Under the pieces are notes generated by a model. That model saw nothing but the letters and a program-made list of their open reading frames with translations, was not told the DNA's origin and did not search any database. A program made the position numbers and the translations under genes. 64,000 nt of DNA from Escherichia coli (lineage in GTDB: Bacteria > Pseudomonadota > Gammaproteobacteria > Enterobacterales > Enterobacteriaceae). The first letter of the stretch is position 1. Each line of letters starts with the position of its first letter. Below, piece after piece: positions 1,379 through 58,818 of the stretch. Where the stretch lies: NCBI RefSeq assembly GCF_044647545.1, contig NZ_CP172818.1; one strand, 5' to 3'.

Positions 1379-1381
1379 ATA

Positions 1382-6849: not shown

Positions 6850-6912
6850 TTTCTACTCCTGGACCGCAGGTCTGAAAAGACCTGCGAGTATATCAGAGCT
6901 GAATATATAGCG

Positions 6913-29841: not shown

Positions 29842-30075
29842 ATGTCAACGAAGAACAGAACCCGCAGAACAACAATCCGCAACATCCGCTTTCCTAACCA
29901 AATGATTGAACAAATTAACATCGCTCTTGATCAAAAAGGGTCCGGGAATTTCTCAGCCTGGGTCATTGAAGCCTGCCGCCGGAGACTGTGCTCAGAAAAA
30001 AGAGTTTCTCCTGAAGCAAACAAAGAAAAGAGTGACATTACTGAATTGCTCAGAAAACAGATCAGACCAGATTGA
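29842..30075 (+). CDS. ynfO: Qin prophage protein YnfO, 77 aa
   Basis: 77-aa ORF MSTKNRTRRTTIRNIRFPNQMIEQ... Confidence 0.75.
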   Translation: MSTKNRTRRTTIRNIRFPNQMIEQINIALDQKGSGNFSAWVIEACRRRLCSEKRVSPEANKEKSDITELLRKQIRPD

Positions 30076-30131
30076 AGCAATTTAGATAATCGTGCAGACT
30101 ACGCCCCTCATATCACATGGAAGGTACCACA

Positions 30132-30542
30132 ATGGCTCAGGTTGCCATTTTTAAACAAATATTCGATAAAGTGCGAAATAATTTAAACTATCACTGGTTT
30201 TATTCTGAACTAAAACGTCACAATGTCTCACATTACATTTACTATTTAGCTACAGAGAATATTCATCTTGTTCTTGAAAACGATAATACGGTTTTAATAA
30301 AAGGACAGGGTAAGGTTGTAAATGTAAGATTTTCAAAAAATAAATGCCTTATAGAAGCCACCTTAAAAGGATTCAAATCAGGAGAGTTATCATTTTACGA
30401 ATACAGGAAAAATCTTGCTACAGCAGGGGTTTTCAGATGGATTACAAATATCCACGAAAACAAAAGGTATTACTATACCTTTGATAATTCATTACTCTTT
30501 ACTGAGAACATTCAGAACACTACACAAATATTTCCGCACTAA
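30132..30542 (+). CDS. ydfO: Qin prophage protein YdfO, 136 aa
   Basis: Start at [13 protein letters not shown]... Confidence 0.8.
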
Positions 30543-30731
30543 ATCATAACGTCCGGTTTCTCTCACTCCTGAGCCGGACTGCATTGGTTTAATAAAAACC
30601 ATCGACAATCGAGATTTATATCTATTCGGTAATGTTTAAATATAACAAAACCCCGTAAAAACGAGGTTTATGGGTAATTTGTATTGTTGAATAGCATCTG
30701 ATGAGAAATTGATGCTAATACTATAAACATG

Positions 30732-30905
30732 CTAGATTAAATCAATCTTGATATCATAGCTTTCAAGACCAGTCATTTTTTCCCGTGCAGTAAACTGGAT
30801 ACTGGTAACTTCTTTCCCGGTCTTTTTCTTAAGCTCAATGATTTTTTTTGTTATATATTCAGAAATATCTGCTTCTGTTTTTGTTTTTAACTCTTCAATG
30901 TTCAT
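30732..30905 (-). CDS. gnsB: GnsB (GnsA/GnsB family), 57 aa
   Basis: MNIEELKTKTEADISEYITKKIIELKKKTGKEVTSIQFTAREKMTGLESYDIKIDLI. Confidence 0.85.
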   Translation of the reverse strand: MNIEELKTKTEADISEYITKKIIELKKKTGKEVTSIQFTAREKMTGLESYDIKIDLI

Positions 30906-31077
30906 CATTTCCTCTTTTAGTCTGTTATGACTGTCCTGGTACACAGTAGTGTCAATTATATGGAGCAAACGTATAAAAGATAAGATGAAACATCGCAATA
31001 ATCAACATACGACGGTCTAAATTTCACACAAACAGATAAAGATGATTATCATTTATTATCAATGCATTAGAATCAAA

Positions 31078-31308
31078 TCAATTCAAGAGTCTCATTGCTG
31101 CTTCCAGAATTTCTTCTGAAGTTACATGTCGATCCGCTGCTACATAAATGACTTTATGATCTCCGGTCAGAGATGGAAACCCTGCAGCCATTACAGTGAG
31201 GTGTGTTGTTTCGCCATTTGGATATTCACGCATGATGGTGTTAACTCCGGTCATCACTGGCACTACCATTGCTGGTTCAGAGTTAAAAAAAACTATTATT
31301 TTTTTCAT
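31078..31308 (-). CDS. ynfN: Qin prophage small protein YnfN; start uncertain
   Basis: 89-aa ORF; several in-frame Met candidates (MKKIIVFF..., MREYPNG...). Confidence 0.5.
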   Translation of the reverse strand: MKKIIVFFNSEPAMVVPVMTGVNTIMREYPNGETTHLTVMAAGFPSLTGDHKVIYVAADRHVTSEEILEAAMRLLN

Positions 31309-31579
31309 AATGTTACCGTAATATGTGAGTATCCATCGACTAGACACTAAGCAAAAAAGCTCCCGAAGGAGCCTTCATTTTCACTTTCTTAAATCTAACG
31401 ACAGATGGCTAACATTTAAGTATTGTGAAATATTATCAAATGTAATCATCATTGATTTACAAAAGATACATTTTGCCCCGAAAGGATTTCTGTCAGAAAC
31501 ATCAAAAGATGATGTTCTATACTGAGAACCATGGCAACACGGGCATCTAAAGTGAATATGGTTTGTAATATTTTCTACC

Positions 31580-31792
31580 TCAAAGTGCCACTACATGAAC
31601 AGCTGCAGGGCCTTTAGGTCCGTTCTCAATACCAAATTCGACTTCCTGATTCTCAGTTAACGTTTTGAAATCGTTGCTCTGAATAGCTGAGAAATGCACA
31701 AACACATCTTTGCTACCATCTTTCGGCGTGATGAAACCAAAACCTTTTTCAGGGTTAAACCATTTCACTAAACCAGTCATTTTGTTAGACAT
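31580..31792 (-). CDS. cspI: cold-shock protein CspI, 70 aa
   Basis: [38 protein letters not shown]...; long AT-rich upstream leader. Confidence 0.9.
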
Positions 31793-32156
31793 CATTATTA
31801 CCTTTTGAAGAAGTTAGCCCTTGGGCAGAATGGTCCGAAAAAAAAATATCAGAGAGAAAAACCAACAAGGAAATCTCAAGAGGTACAAATAATAAAATTA
31901 TAACAATGACTGCTTCAGATAATTTTGTAACAAACCAGAACACCATTAACGCATGATTAACCAACCATAGCAAGGATTACTTTTGTAAAGAAAAACACAC
32001 GAATGAAACAATAGCTTTATTTATTAATAAAACGTGTCATTCTGTCTAATGACCTTTTATCTTACCCTTAAGATTTCAAGGATTTTGACTCATGGAAGAG
32101 TCCTTTTTATTTAAATTTCACATTCAGCGCTAAAAATAATCCGATTTAATATTAAT

Positions 32157-33180
<1,024 letters not shown>

Positions 33181-33184
<4 letters not shown>

Positions 33185-33492
33185 AGATATTTATGATGAG
33201 GACGCTCGTGCTTATTGGCAGGATTTTCAATCTTAAAGGAGTACTGATGCTGCAGATAAGACTCAACTTTTTCTGACAATTTTTCTGCTACTTCCAGGAA
33301 GACTTGCCGGACGCTCATTCTGGCTGCTGCCTCATAAAACTCCAGCGCAGCTCCTTCAACACGGTCCATGGCGACATCCAGGCCAAAAATTTCACCGTCA
33401 AAGCGTTCTTTGTCCTGTAAGGCTACAGTTACCGTAACTTTATTCTCAAAATTACGGACTCCTTTCACAACCAGTTCATAGTATTGAGTCAT
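33181..33492 (-). CDS. ydfR: Qin prophage protein YdfR, 103 aa
   Basis: 103-aa ORF between holin and endolysin. Confidence 0.75.
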
Positions 33493-33496
33493 TGGA

Positions 33497-33712
33497 TTAC
33501 TCTCCTCTCGCAGCCTTACGCCTGTCTTCTTTAATCTTGAAATAAAGATTTGTCAGGTACGTCAGCAGGCCAAATACCAGGCTACCCAGCACACCTATTG
33601 CTGCCCACTGTGAGGGCGTGACTTTATCGAGCAGCTGTAAAAACCAGTAGCCAGCACTGCCTGCGGAGGTGCCGTAGGCAATGCCTGTTGAAATTTTGTC
33701 CATGGATTTCAT
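33497..33712 (-). CDS. essQ: holin EssQ, 71 aa
   Basis: [31 protein letters not shown]... with TM segments and charged C-terminus. Confidence 0.8.
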
Positions 33713-33932
33713 AGCCTCACCTCCGCACGGAACGGATGGTGCAATATGTTTGAAAAGATCGGAGTCTACGGGGTAGTTTTGACAGCACACGTTGTTCTCA
33801 ACGGCGCTAAAAAAACATACACATTAAAAATGTGGGTAATTATTTTGAAAGAAAGTCATATATAAAATAATAATACGAGAAATGTTTTCATATTTAGTGT
33901 ACTGTATACGGCCATTTATACAGGAAAAGCCT

Positions 33933-34103
33933 ATGTCAGAACGTAAAAACTCAAAATCACGCCGTAATTATCTCGTTAAATGTTCCTGCCCAAACTGCAC
34001 CCAAGAGTCAGAACACAGTTTTTCAAGAGTACAAAAAGGTGCCCTTTTGATCTGCCCTCATTGCAACAAAGTATTCCAGACAAATCTTAAAGCTGTAGCC
34101 TGA
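33933..34103 (+). CDS. 56-aa zinc-ribbon small protein (two CxxC pairs); possibly the ribosome-profiling-identified small protein of this region
   Basis: AGGAAAA RBS 6 nt upstream of ATG; MSERKNSKSRRNYLVKCSCPNCTQESEHSFSRVQKGALLICPHCNKVFQTNLKAVA; hairpin downstream. Confidence 0.45.
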   Translation: MSERKNSKSRRNYLVKCSCPNCTQESEHSFSRVQKGALLICPHCNKVFQTNLKAVA

Positions 34104-34466
34104 TTGATTTTATTAGTAACAAGTATTTTTTATATTTTAATAATATATTTAAAGCAGATAATAAAAAACCCGCCTGAGCGGGTTTGAGATTGTGGTGCTT
34201 TTTGTGGGAGTCATCCACTTACGCACTTTGTTTTGCCATGCCAGCAGTTAGCTTCTGCTGTAAAACTATTCATGCAGCAAACCTGCACTTCACCACAATG
34301 GTTAGCATACTTTTCCTGATTAAGATTTTGCCAAATATGCTAGCCATTGTTTCATGTATTGGACCTCCTTACTTTTTATTAAAGAGATCCAATATTCACT
34401 ACTCTGTCCGTATCTCTACTCAGGCATCAGCCTTCTTCGTTATCGTATACAGACGAGCGATGAATT

Positions 34467-34682
34467 TTAATCAGTAATGATGACATTTGCTGCTGCAGGA
34501 CCTTTAGCACCACTCTCTATAGAGAAGGTAACCTTTTGACCTTCAAATAAGGTTCGATAATTATCATTCTGAATCGCAGAAAAATGCACAAACACATCTT
34601 TACTACCATCAACAGGAGAAATAAAGCCGAAACCTTTATCAGCGTTAAACCATTTTACTAAACCAGTCATTTTATTTGACAT
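34467..34682 (-). CDS. cspB: cold-shock protein CspB, 71 aa
   Basis: [38 protein letters not shown]... Confidence 0.9.
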
Positions 34683-34982
34683 TCTACATTCCTTAACTTG
34701 AGCCTTTCGGCATAAATGGTTTGCATAACAGAAACGACTTCGTACTTAATTGGAGAGACTCAAAGAAGGAATAAGTGAATAACACCTGAAATGAGAACTG
34801 CTTTAGTAAACTACTTCGTATATCGTCTGTTCTTCAAACCGACGCAATCATTAACGCATAGTTGAACATATGAAGCAATGTTTATTTTAGACATCCAGCC
34901 ATCTTCAACCCCATCAAAAAACTATAGCTTTCTTCAGGAACGTGTGTATAGTGCGCCAAGTTATCAGTATTAAGGAATTTTT

Positions 34983-35195
34983 TTGTCCCGTAAAATGACA
35001 GGAATTGTCAAAACCTTTGACGGCAAAAGCGGCAAGGGTCTTATCACCCCATCCGATGGTCGTATCGATGTCCAGCTTCATGTTTCAGCGCTCAATCTCC
35101 GCGATGCAGAAGAAATTACCACCGGATTACGCGTGGAATTTTGCCGGATAAATGGTCTGCGTGGCCCTTCAGCTGCCAATGTTTACCTTTCATGA
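34983..35195 (+). CDS. cspF: cold-shock-like protein CspF, 70 aa (TTG start as reported by the ORF track)
   Basis: [37 protein letters not shown]...; divergent from cspB. Confidence 0.85.
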
Positions 35196-35616
35196 GCTAT
35201 ATTAAAGCTTTAATTTCAGGCCCCATCGGATCACACATGGAGAGTTTTTATGAATAACCCCGTCTGTCTTGATGACTGGTTGATTGGCTTTAAAAGCTTA
35301 TGCTGTACTTTGGCCGTAATAGCTCTGCTAATAATATAATAAGCAGACTCATTGTGTTTAGGGACATTGTACTGGAAGAAAACATTTTAAACATCAGGCA
35401 AATAACCAAGTCACCAGCTAAATAATAAGTTAACAGACATGAGTCCCGGGATGAGATTCAACATTACCATTGCCCCATTTAAAGCACAAAACCCGCTCAT
35501 CAGCGGGTTTTCTACTTTTTCTTAACGTCGGGTATACAAAGCCCATCGTTAGGAGAATCCTAACCAAATTTTTTGAAAAATGCAAGAATCATGTCGCCAT
35601 CTTCGGCGAAAATCAT

Positions 35617-36369
35617 TTATCTCGTCACTTTTCTTAATTGCGCCTCAGCATATGCTTCTTCCTGCCAGCACTTTGTCACCAGTTTATCAATGACATCTGC
35701 ATATCCTTTGTACCACTGATAATCCGTCAGGTCTGGTACCAGCTTCTGGACATGATGCCGCGCCAGTGTGGTTGGTAAACGGCTAAACCGATTTCCATTG
35801 CAACGCCCACAAATCTTATAAACAGGCGTGCCATGAAGCCGGGTCCTTTTTTCATCCAGGACAATACCTTTACCCTTACACCCTCTGCACGCTGTGCTGA
35901 CTTCTCCCTTACCATGACAATGCTGACATAGTTCCTTCACCCACTCTTCCTTGATAACAGATTCCCCGCTTCTGGAGTGTTTCACCACTTCGCGCAATAC
36001 ATTATGAAATCCAGTACCAGCACAATGCTCACAGCGAGCCTTACTTGCCGCAGACCTGGAATAATCAGCAAAGGCAAAATTCACAAGGTAAGGGATGATC
36101 TGTAACCGGGTTTCTTCACTCAATTTGTTCAATGTCGGGTTATCCAGTGCCATCGCGTAATTGAGCAGACCTTCAATCGCAAATTGAGGATCCTGAACAC
36201 CAACTTTTGCCAGGAATAAGGCAAACCCAAGCGGTGCTTTCGACTGCACCATCCCCTGCGCAGCCATCACATCCGTAATCGTTAAACCACCTGAGCCTGT
36301 CGCCGGTGCGTCATCGCTCAATTTTGGAGATTTTGGGGAGTAATATTTTGGTAAGGCTTCAAGGTTCAT
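35617..36369 (-). CDS. quuQ: late-gene antiterminator Q homologue QuuQ, 250 aa
   Basis: 250-aa ORF with Cys-rich zinc-binding region upstream of the lysis cassette. Confidence 0.85.
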   Translation of the reverse strand: MNLEALPKYYSPKSPKLSDDAPATGSGGLTITDVMAAQGMVQSKAPLGFALFLAKVGVQDPQFAIEGLLNYAMALDNPTLNKLSEETRLQIIPYLVNFAFADYSRSAASKARCEHCAGTGFHNVLREVVKHSRSGESVIKEEWVKELCQHCHGKGEVSTACRGCKGKGIVLDEKRTRLHGTPVYKICGRCNGNRFSRLPTTLARHHVQKLVPDLTDYQWYKGYADVIDKLVTKCWQEEAYAEAQLRKVTR

Positions 36370-36564
36370 GCTCGTTCTCCACTTACGCCAGTACGCCTAT
36401 TGCCAGCGCACGATCGATAAAACGAAATATCAGCTCCAGCTGGGAACCATACATCTCTTCAAATGCCACGGTATCCGCATGCAGCTCGTCGTGATGCTTT
36501 CTGCACAAAGGCAACACGAAGAGGTCATGCGCTTTTGTACCCATTCCACCCTGACCGTGGCCTA

Positions 36565-37470
36565 TCAGGTGATGGGGATCATCGGCAGGCTTACCACAAC
36601 ACGCACACGGCTGTGTCTTAACCCAGCGCGTGTACTTCTCATTAACCCAGCGGCGACGTTTAGGCGCTTCATAAAAGATTCCGGCGACTCTGGATCAACG
36701 GCAATGCTGACCACCGTCTTTTCCTGTGGTGGGTTCTGTTGCTGGTGGGCGTGAGGCAGCGGCGCAAGATTTTTTGTGCGCTGTTTCAGTATGCTGGTGG
36801 CGGTCTGCTCTCCCGGTACGATGTCGCTTTCGCGGTACACCGAGCAGATTTTTTCCGCTGGTAATCCCAGCGAACGACGCGATACAGCCTCAGGTAGTGC
36901 ATCCACCACCTGATTGCAGACCGCCCACCAGGATAATTCAGCCAAAGATAATTCCCGCTCCTGCGTACCGCTTATTGCGTGACGGATGACGTCAATCACC
37001 CATGCTGTCAGATTTTGTTGAGCAAGCAGCTCCAGTGATTCCGATGTCTGGTCACGCAGTTGGTTGTCGCAGTGCCAACACAACACCATTGCGCCGGTAC
37101 CATAACGGTGAATGACTGTTTCAGTGTGATGGTAATCTCCATTAGGCCACTGGCAGGATGTAACATGACGTAATAGCCAGTCAGACAATGCGCCAACGCC
37201 GCCAGCAGCACGAATCACCCGTTCGTTACTAAAAAACGGCAGCAATGTTTTGTCTTCCGCCAGCGGCTGGCCAACGGCAGGAACGACTCCGGATGGCAGA
37301 TTACGCATGCTTTTTGGTTCCGGTTCCACCAGCACTCGAGGATTATGAAATATCTGTATGGATTCACGGCCCGGCTTAAGGACCACCAGCCCAAGCTCAG
37401 GCACCAGAACAGGTCTAAGTAATACCCGCACGTTACCTCCAGATCCGTTGCTGGAAAGTGCGGGACGCAC
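36565..37470 (-). CDS. ydfU: DUF968-type prophage protein YdfU (301-aa frame, GTG start per ORF track)
   Basis: Long minus-strand ORF; its 5' end overlaps the adjacent 92-aa ORF by 38 bp in a different frame. Confidence 0.7.
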   Translation of the reverse strand: MRPALSSNGSGGNVRVLLRPVLVPELGLVVLKPGRESIQIFHNPRVLVEPEPKSMRNLPSGVVPAVGQPLAEDKTLLPFFSNERVIRAAGGVGALSDWLLRHVTSCQWPNGDYHHTETVIHRYGTGAMVLCWHCDNQLRDQTSESLELLAQQNLTAWVIDVIRHAISGTQERELSLAELSWWAVCNQVVDALPEAVSRRSLGLPAEKICSVYRESDIVPGEQTATSILKQRTKNLAPLPHAHQQQNPPQEKTVVSIAVDPESPESFMKRLNVAAGLMRSTRAGLRHSRVRVVVSLPMIPIT

Positions 37471-37711
37471 GTGGTGGGCGTTCGGAGTAAGGCAATCTGA
37501 CTGAGATTATCCAGTGACGGTAGTCGAGACTAAGGGCTTTCTTAACCTCGTATCCGCGCCTGCGGTAACACTGAATTATCCATTCAGCCTGCTCTTCAGT
37601 GCATGGAGGGTGTTGGAACCATTCAGACTTGAATGCGTGAGAATACCGCTCGTGCGTGCAGGCAAGAACGGGCGAATTATCAGAATTGTAATATTTTACG
37701 TTGCGTGCCAT
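37433..37711 (-). CDS. 92-aa Cys-containing prophage ORF upstream of ydfU (separate gene or frameshifted N-terminus of ydfU)
   Basis: MARNVKYYNSDNSPVLACTHERYSHAFKSEWFQHPPCTEEQAEWIIQCYRRRGYEVKK... Confidence 0.45.
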   Translation of the reverse strand: MARNVKYYNSDNSPVLACTHERYSHAFKSEWFQHPPCTEEQAEWIIQCYRRRGYEVKKALSLDYRHWIISVRLPYSERPPRASRTFQQRIWR

Positions 37712-37777
37712 CGGTTTTCTCCGGTGGCACGGTGTTACTCAGCGGGAGTTCAGCCCCGCGCAAGATTGTAGATGAGT

Positions 37778-38029
37778 TTATTCTTCTGCAAAAGCTGAAA
37801 AGCCTGCTTTTATTCCGATCTCTTTCAGTGCCTGTAATGAAGTGACAAACTCACCTTCGCGCAAGATAAATCCGTCTGTCACTCGACCATCCACAAAATT
37901 AATTAACGCAGCCCCATTCTTTCGCAAACACATAATGCGGTAATGACTAACAAGATTTCCATTTTCAACGCACACCGCATAGAGGCCATCTTCACAAAAA
38001 ATTTTACGCAGTTCTTCGATGTTCATCAT
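37778..38029 (-). CDS. rem: Rem, Qin prophage protein, 83 aa
   Basis: 83-aa ORF MMNIEELRKIFCEDGLYAVCVENGNLVSHYRIMCL... Confidence 0.75.
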   Translation of the reverse strand: MMNIEELRKIFCEDGLYAVCVENGNLVSHYRIMCLRKNGAALINFVDGRVTDGFILREGEFVTSLQALKEIGIKAGFSAFAEE

Positions 38030-38245
38030 CAGAATCCTTCCGGATAATTAGCTCTCCCCTTTAAGGGACCATCCCTCTTATCCCTGCGCGCTACTTAAGT
38101 ATTTTTGATTCTATTCCGGCACCGTCCAGAACTTCAAACGCGTTGAAAATAAAAACAAAAACCCGCCGAAGCGGGTTAAGTGCGGGTGCGTTGAGGATGC
38201 CTGCCACATCAGAGGTGGCGAGGGATTTCTCCCTCGCCGGGTCTC

Positions 38246-38401
38246 TTACTCCTCAGGTTCGTAAGCTGTGAAGACAGCGACCTCCGTCTGCCCGGTTCGG
38301 ATTCGTACCTCGCAGAGGTCTTTCCTCGTTACCAGTGCCGTCACTATGACGGTTAAACAGATGACGATCAGGGCGATTAACATCGCCTTTTGCTGCTTCA
38401 T
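38246..38401 (-). CDS. hokD: Hok-family membrane toxin HokD (RelF), 51 aa
   Basis: Minus strand encodes MKQQKAMLIALIVICLTVIVTALVTRKDLCEVRIRTGQTEVAVFTAYEPEE. Confidence 0.85.
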   Translation of the reverse strand: MKQQKAMLIALIVICLTVIVTALVTRKDLCEVRIRTGQTEVAVFTAYEPEE

Positions 38402-38472
38402 AGCCTGCTTCTCCTGTCAACGCAAAGCAGAAGTGTCACCTTCGGTGCGAAACAGAGATGTCATGCTTTGGT

Positions 38473-38760
38473 TCAGAGAATGCGTTTGACCGCCTCGCTA
38501 TATACTTCCGAGCGTTCTCTTTTCCCAACAGAAATCACGAAAACGACAACTTTCTCGTCTATAACCTGGTATACAAGGCGATAGCCTGAAGACCGGAGCT
38601 TAATCTTGTAACAATCAGGCATACCACGGAGCTTGTTTGCTTCAATCCGGGGTGACTCAAGTACTTCAACCAGCTTCTTTTTCAACTGTTCACGTACCGT
38701 CGAGCCCAGCTTTCGCCATTCCTTTAGTGCCCGCTCGTCAAAATCCAGAAAATACGCCAT
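38473..38760 (-). CDS. relE: mRNA interferase toxin RelE, 95 aa
   Basis: MAYFLDFDERALKEWRKLGSTVREQLKKKLVEVLESPRIEANKLRG... Confidence 0.95.
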   Translation of the reverse strand: MAYFLDFDERALKEWRKLGSTVREQLKKKLVEVLESPRIEANKLRGMPDCYKIKLRSSGYRLVYQVIDEKVVVFVISVGKRERSEVYSEAVKRIL

Positions 38761-38999
38761 CAGAGTTCATCCAGCGTCACACGTACTGGCTTAGGATTAC
38801 GAAGCCGTTCTTTCACTATCTCCACAAGTTCAGCATCTTCATCACTCAGGAGTGTCTGTTTGAACGGCAAGCGTTCATTGTCAGCGATATACTCGAGCAT
38901 GAGACGAAGCGCTTCAGAAGGAGTTACACCCATTTTTTCAAGCGCGGCGTAAGAACGCGCTTTAAGTTCATCGTCAATACGCAGGTTAATGCTACCCAT
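38760..38999 (-). CDS. relB: antitoxin RelB, 79 aa
   Basis: MGSINLRIDDELKARSYAALEKMGVTPSEALRLML...; stop overlaps relE start. Confidence 0.95.
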   Translation of the reverse strand: MGSINLRIDDELKARSYAALEKMGVTPSEALRLMLEYIADNERLPFKQTLLSDEDAELVEIVKERLRNPKPVRVTLDEL

Positions 39000-39023
39000 G
39001 TCTTACACCTCTTGTAATTACAA

Positions 39024-39329
39024 ATGTCATTACAAGTATCGCACTACAACATGCTTAGGGCAAGTCACGAAGGAAGTCAGAAAGTAGTCGTAAGAACGGT
39101 GATCACTGTCCGCTTTGTGCCAGGAGCAGCCATTGCTAAGTCCATCCTGTATTGTGCAGGTCAGCTCGTTTTTAAAGAGTCCGGCCATCATCTTACTGGT
39201 ACAGACACCATATACTTTGTGACGGTCAGGCTACATATGCACAACTCAACTTATTCATCTATTTTTTGCTTTAGCATGTCAGTGTTGCTTTCTCGTCGGC
39301 GGGTGAGCGGTGACCTGACCTGTCGATAA
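39024..39329 (+). CDS. ydfV: Qin prophage protein YdfV, 101 aa
   Basis: 101-aa ORF; weak coding signal. Confidence 0.6.
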   Translation: MSLQVSHYNMLRASHEGSQKVVVRTVITVRFVPGAAIAKSILYCAGQLVFKESGHHLTGTDTIYFVTVRLHMHNSTYSSIFCFSMSVLLSRRRVSGDLTCR

Positions 39330-39531
39330 AGGAACGTAACACGTTTTATGCAACACCCGCATGCGGCAGAAAATTATTGCCGAACGTTTACCCCTGTCAA
39401 CAAGCTTTACTTTCTGAGGCGCGCCAGCCCGCGAGGAAAACAATCTGAACATCAAACAATTAATGACACAAGAAATACGATTAAAGATTTTTTTGTGCAT
39501 GCCGATAGTGCTTTTTTAAAAGGAGAAATCT

Positions 39532-39864
39532 ATGTCTGTCACAATTCAGGGAAATACCTCAACCGTTATTTCAAACAACTCCGCCCCGGAAGGAACATCA
39601 GAAATAGCCAAAATCACAAGACAAATTCAGGTGCTGACTGAAAAGCTTGGGAAAATCTCATCGGAAGAGGGGATGACGACACAGCAGAAAAAAGAAATGG
39701 CTGCATTGGTACAGAAGCAAATTGAAAGCCTCTGGGCTCAACTGGAGCAGTTGTTAAGGCAGCAGGCAGAGAAAAAGAATGAAGACGCGACAGTTCAGCC
39801 TGATAAAAAAGAAGAGAAAAAAGACGATACAAATACCGCTGGCACCATTGATATTTACGTCTAA
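39532..39864 (+). CDS. flxA: FlxA (flagellar-regulon sigma-28-dependent protein), 110 aa
   Basis: 110-aa Lys/Glu-rich ORF; GGAG RBS; terminator follows. Confidence 0.85.
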   Translation: MSVTIQGNTSTVISNNSAPEGTSEIAKITRQIQVLTEKLGKISSEEGMTTQQKKEMAALVQKQIESLWAQLEQLLRQQAEKKNEDATVQPDKKEEKKDDTNTAGTIDIYV

Positions 39865-39877
39865 GTGACAGCCGTAT

Positions 39878-39902
39878 TGTGGCCCTCATCGGGCCACTTT
39901 TC
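39878..39902 (+). terminator. rho-independent terminator after flxA
   Basis: gtggccctcatcgggccac hairpin followed by ttttc. Confidence 0.6.
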
Positions 39903-40248
39903 GCCATCAGCCTTTTCTTTAAAGACATATTATCTTTGTATCATTTCTGATAGTTAACATTACAAGATATAAGTAATGGACGCACTCCCAATTAGTCTAT
40001 TTAAATCGCCACGAGTTTAACTGACAACCCATGATCAATTATGAATTGCAACTATTTCTGTAGTCACTTTTGTGGGGACAGTCCACAAAACTGCCAACTT
40101 CCGCTTCTTGCTCTTAGCGGACATTAGCATAGGCTATTTACCATAACGCCTCATTACGCGCACCGCCCAGACTGACTCAGCGCGTTTCTGGCATATCCCC
40201 GGTAAAACAAGTAACAAACCACCCGAAAATGAACACCAGAAACGCGAC

Positions 40249-40476
40249 TTAAGAATCTACCCTATGAATGGATATGCACTCAACCGAATCGATCTTGGTT
40301 TCAATCTTTTTTATCGGGATCAGGCTTCTTTTTAGGTAACTTCGGGGGCTTAACTTGCTGATGACTTTGCGTTCGGCGCGTAAGCCAGGGATGGTCAGCT
40401 TTAGGTTTAACATAGTATTTTGAGCGTAAATCAATACGGGCATTATCCACTCGTTCATGGACACTCTTTTCATCAT
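40249..40476 (-). pseudogene. ydfW: integrase-like fragment YdfW (IntK remnant)
   Basis: 75-aa ORF with weak similarity to the C-terminal end of tyrosine recombinases; far too short to be functional. Confidence 0.55.
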
Positions 40477-40763
40477 CCAGTGGTAGCCTCCATAATTGCA
40501 GGCACTAGCGCCGTGAACTTTTCACGCTTATCCCTAGTGTCGATAGCCTTCCAGCGTTCGAATATCTTCACTCGATTAACGCCAAGCGCTCGCTGATCAA
40601 CCGCGCCACCTTCATCTGTGACACGCTGAACATCGATGTTCGGGCGCTCTTTCAAAGCCCAGAATGCTTCAGTGATTAATATCGTCGCCTGCTCCTGTGT
40701 CATTCCTGGTCGACATATCCAGGCATCCAGAGCCTCACGAGCCTGTTCAGGAGTGATTTTCAT
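40473..40763 (-). CDS. ydfX: Qin prophage protein YdfX, 96 aa
   Basis: 96-aa ORF overlapping dicC stop. Confidence 0.7.
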   Translation of the reverse strand: MKITPEQAREALDAWICRPGMTQEQATILITEAFWALKERPNIDVQRVTDEGGAVDQRALGVNRVKIFERWKAIDTRDKREKFTALVPAIMEATTG

Positions 40764-40974
40764 TGTTCAACCGCCCCGCCCGCTTCGTCTTACGATATTC
40801 GTCATAAACCTTGGGATCATACAGAAGCTCGCCGCCAGATGCCTCCTGTAGACGCATCGCGCGACCTTCAGGAACCAGCTCTTGCCATTGAGAAACAGCA
40901 GATGGGTCAACGCCAGCAGCTTTCGCTACTTTGGCTTTCGTACCGTAAAAATTAATTACGTCTGATTTAAACAT
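40747..40974 (-). CDS. dicC: Cro-like repressor DicC
   Basis: Small ORF divergent from dicA; C-terminal ...LQEASGGELLYDPKVYDEYRKTKRAGRLNNENHS. Confidence 0.8.
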   Translation of the reverse strand: MFKSDVINFYGTKAKVAKAAGVDPSAVSQWQELVPEGRAMRLQEASGGELLYDPKVYDEYRKTKRAGRLNNENHS

Positions 40975-41049
40975 CGCACCTCCAATATTGGTTTTCTCAA
41001 TGCTAATCACTCAAGAATCTCAAGTCAAGGGTTATTAAGATATCTAAAT

Positions 41050-41457
41050 ATGAACGAGAAAACTTTAGGTCAACGCATTAGAGAAAGACGTAAGCAGGTA
41101 GGCTTAAGTCAAAACGGTTTAAGCAAAGCTGCTGGCGTATCTGGCTCATCAATTTCATTATGGGAAAGTGACCATACAGCCCCGCGCGGGCAAAATTTGC
41201 ATCGCCTCGCCGAGGTATTGCAATGTTCACCAACCTGGATACTGTTTGGCGACGAGGACAAAACACCAGCTCCCCCTGTTTCACTCGATAGTGCCTTAGA
41301 CTTATCGGAAGATGAGTTAGAGATGCTGCGTTTGTATCGCGCACTTCCTAAATCAGAGCAACAAGCACAACTCAGCGAACTCCGCGCCCGCGTTGAGAAT
41401 TTTAATCGCCTGTTCACCGAGCTATTAGAGGCTCGCAAACGCTACAAGCATCAATAA
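41050..41457 (+). CDS. dicA: HTH-XRE repressor DicA, 135 aa
   Basis: MNEKTLGQRIRERRKQVGLSQNGLSKAAGVSGSSISLWES... Confidence 0.9.
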   Translation: MNEKTLGQRIRERRKQVGLSQNGLSKAAGVSGSSISLWESDHTAPRGQNLHRLAEVLQCSPTWILFGDEDKTPAPPVSLDSALDLSEDELEMLRLYRALPKSEQQAQLSELRARVENFNRLFTELLEARKRYKHQ

Positions 41458-41649
41458 TCATCCCTTCACAAAATTTTAAAGCCTTACATTTCAATGTATT
41501 GGCTTTATCTTGCGCCAATACTTGAGTTTTCTCATCAAAAAACCTTGACGAAAAATAATGAGAAAACTAAATTACTTCCATCAAGACACCGCACGGTGTT
41601 CTCAGCAAACAGTTCCGCTACCCCGGCGTTAAGGGGAAATGAGGTCAGC

Positions 41650-41802
41650 ATGGATACTATCGATCTTGGCAACAGCGAATCTCTGGTATGTGGCGTGTTC
41701 CCCAACCAGGACGGTACGTTCACCGCGATGACATATACCAAAAGCAAAACGTTTAAAACCGAATCTGGCGCGCGTTGCTGGTTAGCCAGAAACACTGACT
41801 GA
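41650..41802 (+). CDS. ydfA: YdfA, 50 aa
   Basis: MDTIDLGNSESLVCGVFPNQDGTFTAMTYTKSKTFKTESGARCWLARNTD. Confidence 0.75.
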   Translation: MDTIDLGNSESLVCGVFPNQDGTFTAMTYTKSKTFKTESGARCWLARNTD

Positions 41803-41813
41803 TGAGGCTGACG

Positions 41814-42179
41814 ATGGAATTTAAAGATTTACCGTCTGATGTACAGAAAACAGCAGCTCATACATTGCATTCTGTGCTGCGAGAAATCGGGAAAGATATT
41901 GCAAGCGAGCCAGCAAAAGATCTGGCCCGGAAAATCAAGACCGCTTTCGTTGAGCTTTATAATGTTGGCACTGACTCTGAAACTGTCGAGACCAAGACCG
42001 TAAGTTCACCAATATTCTCACTTGAGCCAGGCGTATTATCAGGTGAAATATGCACCGAGATTTCCAGCGAACTGCTTCCGGTAATACGAGAAGCAATTTG
42101 CCGTCGCGGTTTGGATGGAAGTTACGATCATGACGTCCTGCAAGTTCTCAGGACAATGGTGACTTCACTGGGGATTTGA
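41814..42179 (+). CDS. single 121-aa ORF covering the region I recall as two small genes (ydfB and ydfC) in K-12
   Basis: GAGG RBS then ATG (MEFKDLPSDVQKTAAHTLHSVLREIG...); uninterrupted frame to 42179. Confidence 0.55.
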   Translation: MEFKDLPSDVQKTAAHTLHSVLREIGKDIASEPAKDLARKIKTAFVELYNVGTDSETVETKTVSSPIFSLEPGVLSGEICTEISSELLPVIREAICRRGLDGSYDHDVLQVLRTMVTSLGI

Positions 42180-42621
42180 TCCCTGCGTCCTCTAACCTTT
42201 TGATATAGCGGTCCTCCAAGAAGCGGTAAATTTTGTCGAAATCATCTTTCCCCTCTGTTTATTCAGAGGATTACAGGACCCGTAAGTAGCGGCATACATT
42301 TCAACCGTTTTATCAAAAATATAAGAGACAAATTCTTCTTTAGTCATATAGATTTCCTTCAATGGGTTATTCGGAAAGAAGGATACCACTTCGCCTGACG
42401 TGTTAAAAGCAGGCATACAACACGAAAGCGCACGGCGAAGTTCGTCTCACTGTACGGTGTCGTTAAATTTAATTCGACCGTGCGCTTCCGGTTGTGGCAA
42501 CCCGCGAAATGGCGCGGCGGTAAGTATGGCGGGGTTATTCCTTCCCCGTTGAGGACACCGAGTTGTCAGGTTGACCATACGCTTAAGTGACAACCCCGCT
42601 GCAACGCCCTCTGTTATCAAT

Positions 42622-42679
42622 TTTCTGGTGACGTTTGGCGGTATCAGTTTTACTCCGTGACTGCTCTGCCGCCCTTTTT
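42622..42679 (+). ncRNA. dicF: DicF sRNA (53 nt) plus its terminator U-tail
   Basis: tttctggtgacgtttggcggtatcagttttactccgtgactgctctgccgccc followed by ttttt. Confidence 0.8.
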
Positions 42680-42848
42680 AAAGTGAATTTTGTGATGCGG
42701 TGAATGCGGCTGAGCGCACGCGGAACAGTTAAAACCAAAAACAGTGTTATGGGTGGATTCTCTGTATCCGGCGTTAATTGTTAACTGGTTAACGTCACCT
42801 GGAGGCACCAGGCACCGCATCACAAAATTCATTGTTGAGGACGCGATA

Positions 42849-43037
42849 ATGGAAACGTTATTACCAAACGTTAATACGTCTGAAGGTTGTTTTGAAATTG
42901 GTGTCACTATCAGTAACCCTGTATTTACTGAAGATGCCATTAACAAGAGAAAACACGAACGGAAGCTATTAAATAAAATATGCATTCTTTCAATGTTGGC
43001 CCGTTTACGTCCGATACAAAAAGGATGCTGGCAATGA
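42849..43037 (+). CDS. dicB: cell-division inhibitor DicB, 62 aa
   Basis: METLLPNVNTSEGCFEIGVTISNPVFTEDAINKRK... Confidence 0.9.
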   Translation: METLLPNVNTSEGCFEIGVTISNPVFTEDAINKRKHERKLLNKICILSMLARLRPIQKGCWQ

Positions 43038-43225
43038 ATACAGCATTTGCACTTGTTCTGACAGTTTTTCTTGTTTCCGGAGAGCCAGTTGATATTGCAG
43101 TCAGTGTTCACAGGACAATGCAGGAGTGTGTGACTGCAGCAACCGAACAGAAAATTCCCGGTAACTGTTACCCGGTCGATAAAGTTATTCACCAGGATAA
43201 TAACGAAATCCCGGCAGGTCTTTAA
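43034..43225 (+). CDS. ydfD: YdfD, 63 aa small membrane (lysis-associated) protein
   Basis: MNTAFALVLTVFLVSGEPVDIAVSVHRTMQEC...; ATGA overlap with dicB stop. Confidence 0.8.
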   Translation: MNTAFALVLTVFLVSGEPVDIAVSVHRTMQECVTAATEQKIPGNCYPVDKVIHQDNNEIPAGL

Positions 43226-43317
43226 AACAGTTCCGTAATAAACATCCGATTTCATTCTTATATGCCAGCAATGGCAGGGATTTGTTCACCCTTAAATCTG
43301 TAATGAGGTAAAACAAA

Positions 43318-44232
43318 ATGAGTAAAGTCTTTATTTGCGCCGCCATTCCGGACGAACAGGCAATAAAGGAAGAAGGTGCCGTCGCTGTAGCCACTGCCAT
43401 TGAAGCCGGTGATGAACGTCGCGCCCGCGCAAAATTTCACTGGCAATTCCTGGAACATTATCCGGCTGCTCAGGACTGCGCTTATAAATTTCTTGTTTGC
43501 GAGGATAAACCCGGTATACCCCGCCCTGCCCTCGATTCCTGGGATGCTGAATATATGCAGGAAAACCGCTGGGATGAGGCGTCTGCTTCCTTTGTCCCGG
43601 TCGAGACTGAATCCGATCCGATGAACGTCACTTTTGACAACCTAGCCCCTGAAGTACAGAACGCTGTCATGGTTAAGTTCGACACATGTGAAAACATCAC
43701 TGTTGATATGGTGATTAGCGCACAGGAATTGTTGCAGGAAGACATGGCAACATTCGACGGCCATATCGTTGAAGCGTTGATGAAAATGCCAGAAGTTAAC
43801 GCTATGTATCCGGAGCTTAAGCTGCATGCCATCGGGTGGGTTAAGCATAAATGTAAGCCTGGTGCCAAATGGCCCGAAATTCAGGCAGAGATGCGCATCT
43901 GGAAAAAACGTCGCGAAGGTGAACGCAAGGAAGCCGGAAAATACACGTCTGTTGTTGATCTCGCCCGCGCCAGAGCCAATCAACAGCACACTGAAAATTC
44001 AACAGGAAAAATCAACCCGGTCATTGCTGCCATTCATCGCGAATACAAGCAGACATGGAAAACACTGGATGACGAACTGGCCTACGCTCTCTGGCCTGGT
44101 GATGTGGATGCCGGAAACATTGACGGCAGCATCCATCGCTGGGCAAAAAATGAAGTTATCGACAACGACCGCGAAGACTGGAAGCGTATCTCGGCATCAA
44201 TGCGCAAACAGCCTGATGCCCTTCGCTCACGA

Positions 44233-44256
<24 letters not shown>
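43318..44256 (+). CDS. ydfE: Qin prophage protein YdfE; last few codons read into the IS2-like remnant
   Basis: 312-aa ORF; from about 44233 the DNA is IS2 insD-like (cgccagaatgcgctgttgcttga...), so the C-terminus is insertion-derived. Confidence 0.75.
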
Positions 44257-44917
<661 letters not shown>

Positions 44918-45417
44918 GTGATAAGAGAAGTCTGAAAGAGAAATATCCGACAGGCGTGGAAAACCATGGAGGGAAATTACGTATCTGTTTTTTATAAAGG
45001 CGTAAGAGCAGGGAAAACCTGGGGGTCGAAAAAGGAAAAAAAAGGCGCGTTGCAGGTGAGCTACGCGCCTCTGTTTGTTACGCAATAAAAACTGGTGTTT
45101 TCGACTATGCAAAACAGTTTCCCTCCTCACGCAATCTGGAAAAATTTGGTGAGGCCCGACAAGATTTAACCATAAAAGAACTGGCTGAAAAATTTCTGGC
45201 ACTGAAAGAAACTGAAGTCGCAAAAACATCACTCAACACATACCGTGCCGTCATCAAAAATATCCTGAGCATAATCGGTGAAAAAAATCTTGCCTCATCG
45301 ATTAATAAAGAAAAATTACTGGAGGTTCGTAAAGAGCTACTGACTGGATACCAGATCCCCAAAAGTAACTATATTGTTACACAACCAGGGAGATCGGCTG
45401 TAACTGTAAATAATTAC

Positions 45418-54056: not shown

Positions 54057-56483
54057 ATGATGAAAATCCATACCACAGAGGCGCTCATGAAGGCTGAAAT
54101 CAGCCGTAGAAGTCTGATGAAAACCTCCGCACTTGGCAGTCTTGCGCTGGCAAGCAGTGCTTTCACTCTGCCATTTTCCCAAATGGTCCGAGCGGCAGAG
54201 ACACCGGTAGAAGAGAAAGCGGTCTGGAGTTCCTGCACCGTTAACTGCGGGAGCCGCTGTCTGTTACGTTTGCATGTGAAAGATGACACCGTGTACTGGG
54301 TGGAGTCTGATACGACAGGAGACGACGTTTACGGTAATCATCAGGTTCGGGCATGTTTACGCGGGCGCTCTATCCGCCGACGGATGAATCATCCTGACAG
54401 GTTGAAATATCCCATGAAGCGCGTCGGCAAGCGCGGTGAAGGTAAATTTGAACGGATAAGTTGGGATGAAGCCCTGGATACCATCAGTGATAATCTTCGG
54501 CGGATCCTTAAAGATTACGGCAATGAGGCTGTACATGTCCTGTACGGAACAGGCGTAGATGGCGGAAACATCACCAACTCGAACGTCCCGTACCGTCTGA
54601 TGAACTCATGCGGTGGTTTTCTCAGTCGCTATGGTAGCTACAGTACCGCACAGATCAGTGCCGCGATGAGTTATATGTTCGGTGCCAATGATGGCAACAG
54701 CCCGGATGATATCGCCAATACGAAACTGGTCGTTATGTTCGGAAATAACCCGGCAGAAACCCGGATGAGCGGCGGTGGTGTCACTTACTACGTCGAGCAA
54801 GCCCGCGAACGTTCAAATGCACGCATGATCGTCATCGATCCACGTTATAACGACACTGCTGCCGGGCGTGAAGATGAATGGCTGCCCATTCGCCCTGGCA
54901 CCGATGGCGCACTGGCCTGTGCGATTGCCTGGGTACTGATTACTGAAAACATGGTCGATCAGCCATTTCTCGACAAATATTGTGTTGGTTACGATGAAAA
55001 AACGCTGCCCGCCAACGCACCTCGTAACGCGCATTATAAAGCCTATATTCTGGGCGAAGGGCCTGACGGCATAGCTAAAACGCCGGAATGGGCAGCAAAA
55101 ATCACCAGCATCCCGGCAGAAAAAATTATCCAGTTGGCACGAGAGATCGGTTCAGCAAAACCGGCTTATATTTGTCAGGGTTGGGGGCCACAACGACATT
55201 CCAACGGCGAGCAAACATCCCGCGCTATTGCCATGCTTTCCGTTCTCACCGGTAACGTCGGCATAAACGGCGGCAACTCAGGTGTACGCGAAGGTAGCTG
55301 GGATCTGGGAGTAGAATGGTTCCCGATGCTCGAGAATCCTGTTAAAACGCAGATTTCCGTCTTTACATGGACAGATGCCATCGACCATGGTACGGAAATG
55401 ACCGCGACCCGTGATGGTGTTCGTGGAAAAGAAAAACTGGATGTCCCCATCAAGTTTTTATGGTGCTACGCCAGTAACACATTGATCAATCAACATGGCG
55501 ACATCAATCACACCCATGAGGTGCTTCAGGATGACAGCAAGTGCGAGATGATTGTTGGCATTGACCACTTCATGACTGCCTCGGCTAAGTATTGCGATAT
55601 CCTGTTGCCCGACCTGATGCCAACAGAGCAAGAAGACCTTATCTCTCATGAATCTGCAGGGAATATGGGATATGTGATCCTCGCCCAACCCGCAACCTCA
55701 GCAAAATTTGAACGCAAACCCATCTACTGGATTCTGAGTGAAGTCGCCAAACGCTTAGGACCAGACGTTTATCAAACCTTTACTGAAGGTCGCAGTCAGC
55801 ATGAATGGATCAAATATCTCCATGCGAAAACGAAGGAACGTAACCCTGAGATGCCCGACTACGAGGAGATGAAAACGACCGGGATCTTTAAGAAAAAATG
55901 CCCGGAAGAACACTACGTCGCTTTCCGCGCATTCCGTGAAGATCCACAGGCAAACCCGTTGAAAACACCTTCGGGGAAAATCGAAATTTATTCTGAACGA
56001 CTGGCGACGATTGCGGATACCTGGGAATTGAAAAAAGATGAAATTATTCATCCCCTTCCTGCATATACCCCAGGTTTTGATGGCTGGGACGATCCCCTGC
56101 GGAAAACCTATCCACTGCAGTTAACGGGCTTCCACTACAAAGCGCGTACCCACTCCAGCTACGGCAATATTGATGTGTTACAGCAGGCCTGCCCACAAGA
56201 GGTGTGGATCAACCCTATTGATGCTCAGGCACGCGGTATCCGTCATGGCGATACCGTGCGGGTATTTAACACTAATGGAGAAATGCTGATTGCCGCAAAA
56301 GTGACTCCGCGTATTCTGCCTGGCGTTACCGCCATCGGGCAAGGTGCGTGGCTTAAAGCGGATATGTTTGGTGACCGGGTCGATCACGGCGGCAGTATCA
56401 ATATTCTGACCTCTCACCGCCCTTCACCGCTGGCAAAGGGAAACCCGTCGCACAGCAATCTCGTCCAGATCGAAAAGGTTTAA
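54057..56483 (+). CDS. ynfF: Tat-exported molybdopterin oxidoreductase YnfF (DmsA paralogue), 808-aa ORF
   Basis: Twin-arginine signal ISRRSLMK; close tandem paralogue of ynfE. Confidence 0.95.
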   Translation: MMKIHTTEALMKAEISRRSLMKTSALGSLALASSAFTLPFSQMVRAAETPVEEKAVWSSCTVNCGSRCLLRLHVKDDTVYWVESDTTGDDVYGNHQVRACLRGRSIRRRMNHPDRLKYPMKRVGKRGEGKFERISWDEALDTISDNLRRILKDYGNEAVHVLYGTGVDGGNITNSNVPYRLMNSCGGFLSRYGSYSTAQISAAMSYMFGANDGNSPDDIANTKLVVMFGNNPAETRMSGGGVTYYVEQARERSNARMIVIDPRYNDTAAGREDEWLPIRPGTDGALACAIAWVLITENMVDQPFLDKYCVGYDEKTLPANAPRNAHYKAYILGEGPDGIAKTPEWAAKITSIPAEKIIQLAREIGSAKPAYICQGWGPQRHSNGEQTSRAIAMLSVLTGNVGINGGNSGVREGSWDLGVEWFPMLENPVKTQISVFTWTDAIDHGTEMTATRDGVRGKEKLDVPIKFLWCYASNTLINQHGDINHTHEVLQDDSKCEMIVGIDHFMTASAKYCDILLPDLMPTEQEDLISHESAGNMGYVILAQPATSAKFERKPIYWILSEVAKRLGPDVYQTFTEGRSQHEWIKYLHAKTKERNPEMPDYEEMKTTGIFKKKCPEEHYVAFRAFREDPQANPLKTPSGKIEIYSERLATIADTWELKKDEIIHPLPAYTPGFDGWDDPLRKTYPLQLTGFHYKARTHSSYGNIDVLQQACPQEVWINPIDAQARGIRHGDTVRVFNTNGEMLIAAKVTPRILPGVTAIGQGAWLKADMFGDRVDHGGSINILTSHRPSPLAKGNPSHSNLVQIEKV

Positions 56484-56493
56484 GGAGTAGCCC

Positions 56494-57111
56494 ATGACCA
56501 CACAATATGGATTTTTTATCGATTCCAGCCGCTGTACTGGCTGTAAAACCTGCGAACTGGCGTGCAAAGATTTTAAAGATCTTGGCCCGGAAGTCAGTTT
56601 CCGCCGTATTTATGAATATGCTGGCGGCGACTGGCAGGAAGATAATGGCGTCTGGCACCAGAACGTGTTCGCTTATTATCTCTCCATCTCCTGTAACCAT
56701 TGCGATGACCCCGCATGTACAAAAGTCTGCCCCAGCGGCGCAATGCATAAGCGTGAAGATGGCTTTGTGGTGGTTGATGAAGATGTTTGTATCGGCTGCC
56801 GCTACTGCCACATGGCTTGTCCGTACGGCGCACCACAGTACAATGCTGAAAAAGGGCACATGACGAAGTGCGATGGTTGTTATTCGCGCGTCGCCGAGGG
56901 GAAACAACCCATATGTGTCGAATCCTGCCCGCTGCGTGCACTTGAATTCGGTCCAATTGAAGAGCTGCGCCAGAAGCACGGCACTCTGGCTGCCGTTGCG
57001 CCACTGCCGCGCGCGCATTTCACAAAACCCAATATCGTTATCAAACCTAACGCCAACAGCCGCCCGACCGGCGATACCACTGGTTATCTGGCTAATCCGG
57101 AGGAAGTGTAA
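56494..57111 (+). CDS. ynfG: 4Fe-4S ferredoxin-type subunit YnfG (DmsB paralogue), 205 aa
   Basis: Four Cys clusters (CTGCKTCELAC, CNHCDDPACTKVC, CIGCRYCHMAC, CDGC...). Confidence 0.95.
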   Translation: MTTQYGFFIDSSRCTGCKTCELACKDFKDLGPEVSFRRIYEYAGGDWQEDNGVWHQNVFAYYLSISCNHCDDPACTKVCPSGAMHKREDGFVVVDEDVCIGCRYCHMACPYGAPQYNAEKGHMTKCDGCYSRVAEGKQPICVESCPLRALEFGPIEELRQKHGTLAAVAPLPRAHFTKPNIVIKPNANSRPTGDTTGYLANPEEV

Positions 57112-57112
57112 A

Positions 57113-57967
57113 ATGGGAAATGGATGGCATGAATGGCCACTGGTTATCTTTACCGTATTGGGTCAATGCGTAGTAGGCGCGCTGATTGTTAGCGGAATTG
57201 GCTGGTTCGCCGCCAAAAATGACGCAGACCGTCAGCGTATTGTCCGTGGCATGTTTTTCCTCTGGCTGTTGATGGGCATCGGGTTTATTGCCTCTGTCAT
57301 GCACCTGGGGTCGCCACTGCGGGCGTTTAACTCGCTGAATCGAATCGGAGATTCTGGTCTGAGTAACGAGATTGCTGCCGGTTCCATATTTTTTGCCGTT
57401 GGCGGATTATGGTGGCTGGTGGCAGTCATCGGTAAAATGCCGCAAGCGTTGGGGAAACTCTGGTTACTTGTCAGCATGGCGCTCGGCGTCATTTTCGTCT
57501 GGATGATGACCTGCGTGTATCAAATCGACACAGTGCCAACCTGGCATAACGGTTACACTACGCTGGCTTTCTTCCTGACAGTATTGTTGAGCGGTCCAAT
57601 ACTTGCTGCCGCAATTCTGCGAGCAGCCCGCGTTACATTTAATACCACACCATTTGCCATCATTAGCGTTCTGGCGCTGATCGCTTGTGCCGGGGTGATT
57701 GTGCTGCAAGGTTTGTCTCTGGCGTCTATTCACTCATCCGTACAACAAGCCAGCGCACTGGTACCAGATTACGCCTCCTTACAGGTCTGGCGTGTGGTAT
57801 TGTTATGCGCAGGTCTAGGATGCTGGCTTTGTCCGCTCATTCGTCGCCGTGAACCTCACGTTGCCGGACTTGTTCTGGGGCTAATCCTCATACTTGGCGG
57901 TGAGATGATCGGGCGTGTGCTCTTTTATGGCCTGCACATGACGGTAGGAATGGCTATTGCAGGTTAA
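57113..57967 (+). CDS. ynfH: membrane anchor subunit YnfH (DmsC paralogue), 284 aa
   Basis: MGNGWHEWPLVIFTVLGQ..., about 8 TM segments. Confidence 0.9.
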   Translation: MGNGWHEWPLVIFTVLGQCVVGALIVSGIGWFAAKNDADRQRIVRGMFFLWLLMGIGFIASVMHLGSPLRAFNSLNRIGDSGLSNEIAAGSIFFAVGGLWWLVAVIGKMPQALGKLWLLVSMALGVIFVWMMTCVYQIDTVPTWHNGYTTLAFFLTVLLSGPILAAAILRAARVTFNTTPFAIISVLALIACAGVIVLQGLSLASIHSSVQQASALVPDYASLQVWRVVLLCAGLGCWLCPLIRRREPHVAGLVLGLILILGGEMIGRVLFYGLHMTVGMAIAG

Positions 57968-58009
57968 CAAATTGGTGCGGGGCAACCCGCACATTTCAGG
58001 ATGTTAGGA

Positions 58010-58624: not shown

Positions 58625-58818
58625 GATCACCGTAATATTGCCGGATGGTGACGATTACGCGCGATTCGGCAATAATACGTTACAGTGTCACGTTTTTTTA
58701 TCTCTTAAAGCACGCACTGCTTTTGCGGCTGGCCTCTTTTGCCGCAAAATAGTCGCCCGTGTTTCATTGCCCATTTCTGCTCATGCATCATCTACACATC
58801 TATCCGGATCTGCGCACT

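Follow-up and report, generated by a model that had tools for sequence, protein, structure and literature searches.

Two neighboring genes of a Qin-type prophage in Escherichia coli, the second of which, ydfU, is frameshifted as read

The two minus-strand reading frames that meet near position 37433 of the 64,000-nt stretch of Escherichia coli DNA analyzed here (hereafter the window) are very likely two separate genes of a Qin-type prophage, i.e., a small conserved gene and ydfU; the latter starts at the GTG at 37431, would be translationally coupled to the small gene, and would have been pseudogenized by the loss of one T between positions 36666 and 36665. The two-gene architecture as such is already known, and the lesion is a trivial novelty. 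Three explanations had been offered for the apparent overlap of the two reading frames in the first-pass annotation (two translationally coupled genes, a programmed frameshift, or a frameshift mutation splitting one longer gene), and it is the first of these that the comparisons reported here favor.

The gene order relB-relE-hokD-rem-small ORF-ydfU-ydfT(quuQ) identifies the locus as part of a Qin-type cryptic prophage, and not of Rac; identity between the region and the Qin-type prophage of E. coli is 95-97%. The small gene is preceded by an intact rem (minus strand, 37778 to 38029; 83 aa; RefSeq annotation), and ydfU is followed by an intact gene for the antiterminator Q, ydfT/quuQ (minus strand, 35617 to 36369; 250 aa; Pfam Antiterm, E 9.5e-54); rusA follows ydfU in several relatives. 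The ydfU gene of the E. coli K-12 Qin prophage (b1560; DUF968, PF06147) and, upstream of it, the gene for the PGAP "hypothetical protein" WP_012304870.1 represent the same locus, with the same gene order and 95% DNA identity. The junction TGGAGGTAAcGTG between the small gene and ydfU is identical in K-12 Qin, and the YdfU protein of the window, once repaired, differs from that of K-12 at few residues only. Compared to K-12 Qin, the window lacks one T at 36666 and encodes a 288-aa product and a stranded 53-aa ORF instead of a 349-aa protein. The prophage allele of the window is 3-5% diverged from every RefSeq complete genome.

Both reading frames are present on the minus strand just as they had been described, i.e., a small ORF of 92 aa (ATG at 37711, TAA at 37435-37433) and a 301-aa ORF with a GTG start (37470 to 36565), which overlap by 38 nt in different frames; the DUF968-type assignment of the 301-aa ORF was borne out by a match to the Pfam DUF968 model. 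While the overlap is thus literally true of the ORFs, it does not hold for the genes. The GTG that gives rise to it (minus strand, 37468 to 37470) lies in the ydfU frame 13 codons upstream of the ydfU start at GTG 37431, is not a conserved start, and reads GTC in the diverged relatives (L003-L008) in the locus alignment. Upstream of the annotated ydfU start, the ydfU frame is open for 25 codons. By our own arithmetic, the chance that a stretch of this length stays open is (61/64)^25 = 0.30, and the chance that it contains at least one ATG, GTG or TTG is about 0.70; as an open stretch of 25 codons will usually hold a start codon, an apparent overlap is expected from the longest-ORF rule. The 38-nt overlap is an artefact of ORF calling, in which the first start codon after a stop is taken. 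Substitutions within the overlap preserve the small-ORF peptide RPPR[A/P]SRTFQQRIWR and alter the ydfU-frame extension. Rare products of 375-377 aa, reported by a few gene callers, are extensions into the open upstream ydfU frame.

The start codon of ydfU is the annotated and conserved GTG at 37429 to 37431 (minus strand), which is located 1 nt past the TAA of the small gene. Annotations in thousands of E. coli genomes place the ydfU start at the equivalent of this GTG, with the junction TGGAGGTAAcGTG, a 13-mer that was invariant in 9 loci. The first-pass annotation had proposed a comparison with homologues, on the view that a consistent two-ORF arrangement among them would mark normal architecture, and the relatives do share a conserved two-gene architecture. 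Specifically, in every locus examined (K-12-type, closest and diverged E. coli loci with 82-97% DNA identity, and an Stx2a phage), the RefSeq annotation has ydfU (348-352 aa) preceded, with a 1-nt gap, by a hypothetical protein of 89-92 aa. At least 80% of the region is covered by 3,486 records, and both features are listed in 27 of 27 spread-sampled matches that cover the junction. The same start is found at the protein level; the phrog_96 profile ("HNH endonuclease") aligns YdfU residues 1-349 to its positions 1-334 of 334, and residues 1-3 of YdfU are paired with residues 1-3 of its full-length homologues, down to those with 28% identity, when 1.84 billion representatives are scanned with HMMER. 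The YdfU proteins of the large clusters, which count thousands of members, have lengths of 349-352 aa. For the source genome, the protein collection contains the 288-aa product that starts at GTG 37431, while the 301-aa product is absent from it.

Ahead of its stop, the small gene ends in the sense codons TGG AGG, which contain a Shine-Dalgarno-like GGAGG (minus strand, 37436 to 37440) at a distance of 4 nt from the ydfU GTG; the junction reads TGG AGG TAA c GTG. The two genes are thus on the same strand, with stop and start within a few nucleotides of each other, with the Shine-Dalgarno (SD) sequence inside the upstream ORF, and with this arrangement conserved in relatives. Based on this geometry, the small gene and ydfU are probably translationally coupled, as had been proposed at the outset; ribosomes finishing the small gene would re-initiate on the ydfU GTG by way of the GGAGG in the final Trp-Arg codons. 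The short spacing of 4 nt between the SD sequence and the start counts against coupling. RNA folding of the junction (37390-37500) gave a structure no more stable than that of shuffled sequence (z = 0.05) and thus no sign of a structure-masked start codon, and a promoter and terminator scan revealed nothing above background at the junction. Known coupled phage gene pairs (with TAAnGTG, TGATG or ATGA junctions) likewise show stop and start 1 nt apart and an SD sequence in the last codons of the upstream ORF, and, compared to these pairs, there is nothing unusual in the junction between the small gene and ydfU.

The 92-aa ORF is a real gene, separate from ydfU. This small conserved prophage gene (minus strand, 37433 to 37711; annotated as a hypothetical protein in RefSeq) belongs to phrog_1212, which residues 27-92 of its product match end to end (E 1.7e-35). 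The product has 141 database homologues; the 120 of these that were listed are mostly 90-92 aa long and come from E. coli, Shigella flexneri, E. marmotae and E. albertii, and no full-length fusion to DUF968 was found among them. Pairwise dN/dS values for the small gene range from 0.15 to 0.38 at dS values of up to about 1, and its length differences are whole codons. Searches of the 92-aa protein against Pfam and NCBIfam yielded no match, and a PDB sequence search yielded nothing significant. The first-pass annotation had described the protein as Cys/His-containing; this hint did not lead to a zinc-finger signature, as only C37 and H34 are invariant in 37 homologues, while C18 and C48 vary, and C37 is itself absent from a 67-aa relative in locus L019. 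With fewer than four conserved Cys/His ligands, a zinc-finger identity was rejected, and so was an identity with YnfU, the CPXC zinc-knuckle small protein of Qin, as CPXC motifs are absent from the 92-aa ORF.

The frameshift that does affect ydfU is located about 770 nt downstream of the junction, at 36666; it splits the DUF968 domain and does not join the two ORFs. When the window is aligned to K-12-type and closest E. coli loci, it shows one gap only; on the minus strand, the C at 36666 is followed directly by the G at 36665, where these loci have an intervening T (context ATGAAGC[T]GCCTAAACG, which is not a homopolymer). The frame is broken after codon 255 (K255), with a premature stop at 36567-36565 and the natural stop at 36383. 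Thus, while the 301-aa ORF exists as read, its end at 36565 is not the natural end of the gene but a consequence of the 1-nt deletion. Counted from GTG 37431, the 5' fragment of ydfU (minus strand, 36565 to 37431) encodes 288 aa, i.e., native residues 1-255 and 33 out-of-frame residues. The 3' part in the original frame (minus strand, 36383 to 36665) carries a PKxxRW motif, a CxxC...HH...D...CxxHH zinc-finger/HNH module and C-terminal helices and is untranslated from the ydfU start. Within it, a leftover 53-aa ORF (minus strand, 36383 to 36544) begins at an internal Met and represents the C-terminal end of the DUF968/HNH domain. The match to the DUF968 profile is divided accordingly, with profile positions 1-81 of 171 found in the long ORF (73.3 bits) and positions 122-171 in the 53-aa ORF (82.6 bits, E 4.5e-23). 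When the T is inserted, a 349-aa protein is obtained that matches profile positions 1-171 with 260.1 bits, as compared to a gathering cut-off of 27.8. Loss of the T between 36666 and 36665 would have shifted the frame after codon 255, added 33 foreign residues up to the stop at 36565, and deprived the product of the catalytic His, of the two pairs of zinc ligands and of the invariant PK motif, leaving the 53-aa ORF as a stranded tail.

With an indel relative to intact orthologues, a premature stop and a conserved domain lost, ydfU as it stands in the window would be a pseudogene that lacks the HNH module, unless the deletion is a sequence error. The lesion falls immediately before the nearly invariant P257 and the invariant K258, and upstream of C276, H288, D303 and P308. 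Of the modules of YdfU, the truncated product retains just the N-terminal one and thus cannot work as an HNH nuclease. Frameshifted pseudogenes of cryptic prophages likewise have a single-base indel relative to intact alleles, stop prematurely and lack the catalytic domain, and independent lesions occur elsewhere in the same gene family; the particular ydfU lesion of the window was found in no other genome searched.

To describe what the intact protein would be, we used the repaired YdfU. In its AF2 model (pLDDT 87.7), an N-terminal module (about residues 1-225) is followed by a disordered linker (residues 230-242) and a C-terminal module, which includes a beta-beta-alpha element at residues 285-319 that is predicted to adopt a beta-beta-alpha-metal fold. 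Among 35 homologues (25-81% identity), C276, D303 and P308 are invariant and H288 is conserved in at least 90%, consistent with a catalytic His and metal ligands; all of these conserved catalytic or ligand residues are downstream of the frameshift and thus out of frame in the window. Judged by its sequence, repaired YdfU is a member of DUF968 (PF06147) and of group 7 of the His-Me finger (HNH) proteins, the gene in the window itself not being intact. DUF968/YdfU has been assigned, like YbcO, to His-Me finger group 7, and RusA and Q have been named as its typical neighbors (PMC5714182), and DUF968 has been described as an Orf-like domain combined with a zinc-finger HNH (PMC4118853); the module layout of the AF2 model agrees with both this placement and this description. 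YdfU matches the RecA_dep_nuc and HNHc_6 Pfam models below their cut-offs, and a PDB sequence search with YdfU returned nothing significant. The closest solved structures are those of two HNH/His-Me finger nucleases, phage P1 Ref (PDB 3plw) and DLP12 YbcO (PDB 3g27, DUF1364); compared to P1 Ref and YbcO, YdfU has an extra N-terminal module of approx. 225 residues without a structural match. A literature search found neither a biochemical study nor demonstrated nuclease activity of YdfU; family membership and gene context suggest that intact YdfU probably acts on DNA, in recombination or in replication-linked processing in the nin region, where RusA and Q are its neighbors.

We also assessed how widespread the lesion is. 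A 65-mer across the deletion site had 4,408 matching RefSeq complete-genome records, none of which reached 95% identity; the best matches listed span 66 nt, i.e., the extra base is present in them. The exact 288-aa truncated product was found on one contig only. On these matches, the deletion is private to this genome. An alternative reading, by which the T at 36666 was lost only through faulty sequencing or assembly and the organism itself has a complete ydfU (349 aa), draws on this same uniqueness of the allele and of its product, and on the fact that single-base indels are the commonest assembly error. On the other hand, such errors concentrate in homopolymers, and the missing base is outside of one (GAAGC[T]GCC); moreover, independent inactivating lesions are common in the same part of DUF968 genes elsewhere, which makes real decay plausible in a cryptic prophage. 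We thus regard an error as a reading that deserves to be taken seriously, but as the less likely one, and favor a genuine loss of the T from ydfU.

The lesions elsewhere include several that leave the same 53-aa ORF in other, unrelated contigs but differ from that of the window, i.e., a 1-nt deletion at another site (L010), a T-run deletion (L011 and L017) and a 29-bp deletion (L012). The lesions in these four contigs are located within about 120 nt upstream of the HNH motif (2250-2500 in L010; aligned with window positions 36545-36700), and they suggest repeated loss of the nuclease module in prophages. We rejected a recurrent or programmed split as the source of the 53-aa ORF, as the lesions differ in position and type. 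The DUF968 genes of these four contigs have a different N-terminal type and a KilA-N neighbor, and their products are 268-272 aa long. A mosaic boundary was also observed at approx. 36699; in many phages and prophages (Stx2c phages, SfIV, Salmonella and Klebsiella phages), what is shared with the window is limited to the start of Q and the C-terminal HNH part of ydfU, which is attached to other N-terminal modules. Within E. coli, Shigella and Stx phages, this shared module is 90-95% identical. The deletion in the window is located 33 nt inside the shared C-terminal module.

The remaining explanations for the two reading frames can be weighed by the relation between their frames in more distant relatives. 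In loci L019 and L020, a 67-aa homologue of the small protein (50% identity over residues 27-92, E 1.4e-21) is encoded directly upstream of a YdfU with 52% identity, and the L019 lineage has a TGATG-type junction, TGGAGGGACTGATG, equivalent to the stop-SD-start arrangement of E. coli. With the small gene as reference, the frame of ydfU is +1 in the E. coli loci and -1 in L019/L020. The feature conserved at the junction is the stop-SD-start arrangement and not a shift site, and the different frame relation in the L019 lineage argues against both a split gene and a programmed frameshift. More distant YdfU homologues (35-48% identity) are preceded by unrelated genes, i.e., an ANT antirepressor gene, a DUF4406 gene or a 114-aa ORF, with junctions that are tight or overlap by 4-7 nt; taken together, YdfU homologues other than those of E. 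coli overlap the gene upstream of them, whichever it is, by 1, 4 or 7 nt.

That the 92-aa ORF and ydfU had once been one gene, split by a frameshift mutation in 37433-37470, could be read from the two same-strand ORFs overlapping in different frames and from a single 438-aa database protein (P0183) that does fuse the small protein to YdfU (…RTFQQR-MRVLL…). However, this fusion is a singleton from one K-12-like contig and was caused by a 13-nt junction deletion that removed the GGAGG, the stop and the GTG (corresponding to window positions 37425-37445), while the other homologues listed for the small protein are, without exception, either free-standing or fragments. The N-terminus of the YdfU family is at GTG 37431 down to 28% identity, both in phrog_96 and in the distant homologues; distant YdfU homologues occur without the small ORF, and substitutions in the overlap keep the frame of the small ORF and not the ydfU-frame extension. 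A split at the junction is therefore extremely improbable. Separately, three 607-aa proteins (P0184-P0186) that carry both DUF968 and antiterminator-Q Pfam domains imply ydfU-ydfT fusions in a few contigs (window positions 35617-37431).

We give equally little credence to a programmed +1 frameshift, in the overlap or at AGG-TAA, that would produce a fused small-ORF-YdfU protein. The +1 site of prfB has an SD-like sequence before a stop codon, and AGG is a rare codon; the GGAGG just before the stop of the small gene loosely resembles this site. Yet, with a frame relation of +1 in E. coli and -1 in L019, there is no single conserved shift mechanism, and none of the 120 listed homologues of the small protein is a fusion to full-length DUF968. 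In addition, the junction shows no slippery heptamer, re-pairing of the tRNA from AGG to GGU would be unfavorable, folding of 37390-37500 gave no stimulatory structure, and the peptide that the ydfU frame would encode upstream of its start is not conserved. Finally, that ribosomes bypass the lesion at 36666 by a -1 shift and still make full-length YdfU has a negligible probability. A -1 slip after the CGC codon would formally restore ...MKRPKRRRW..., but the sequence G AAG CGC C is not a slippery heptamer of the X XXY YYZ type, this allele is private to the genome, and the lesions elsewhere differ in position and kind (including the 29-bp deletion), which points to random decay and not to a recoding site.

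For annotation, the preferred reading of two separate genes with a decayed ydfU means that the small ORF and ydfU should be given as two genes, with ydfU starting at GTG 37431, and that ydfU in the window should be given as a frameshifted pseudogene with its natural end at 36383 instead of 36565, the 53-aa ORF being no gene. For biology, it adds a further example of a nuclease gene decaying in a cryptic prophage. A much more speculative hypothesis, which we consider doubtful and put forward with less confidence than the error reading above, is that the phrog_1212 small protein is a dedicated partner of YdfU (an inhibitor, chaperone or specificity subunit) that would be made in fixed proportion to it through the stop-start junction. 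Lambdoid phages of Escherichia would then carry the pair as a two-component module that serves recombination or acts against the host, and the recurrent loss of HNH modules in prophages would reflect selection against a harmful nuclease.

Several observations concern the surroundings of the locus. The prophage segment (30000-45000) is approx. 96% identical to its best RefSeq complete-genome match, and the chromosomal flanks (1-8000 and 56000-64000) match E. coli strains, ST648 and IMT16316 among them, with 99.6-100% identity. In the ST648/IMT16316 strains, the same flanks are separated by about 81 kb, as compared to about 56 kb in the window, and the content of the Qin site thus differs among close relatives. 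An Rfam search over 33000-41000 found only a cspA thermoregulator 5'UTR (RF01766; minus strand, 34451-34843; 158.8 bits, full length), which is unrelated to the ydfU junction and presumably belongs to a Qin-encoded cold-shock gene (cspB/cspF/cspI cluster).
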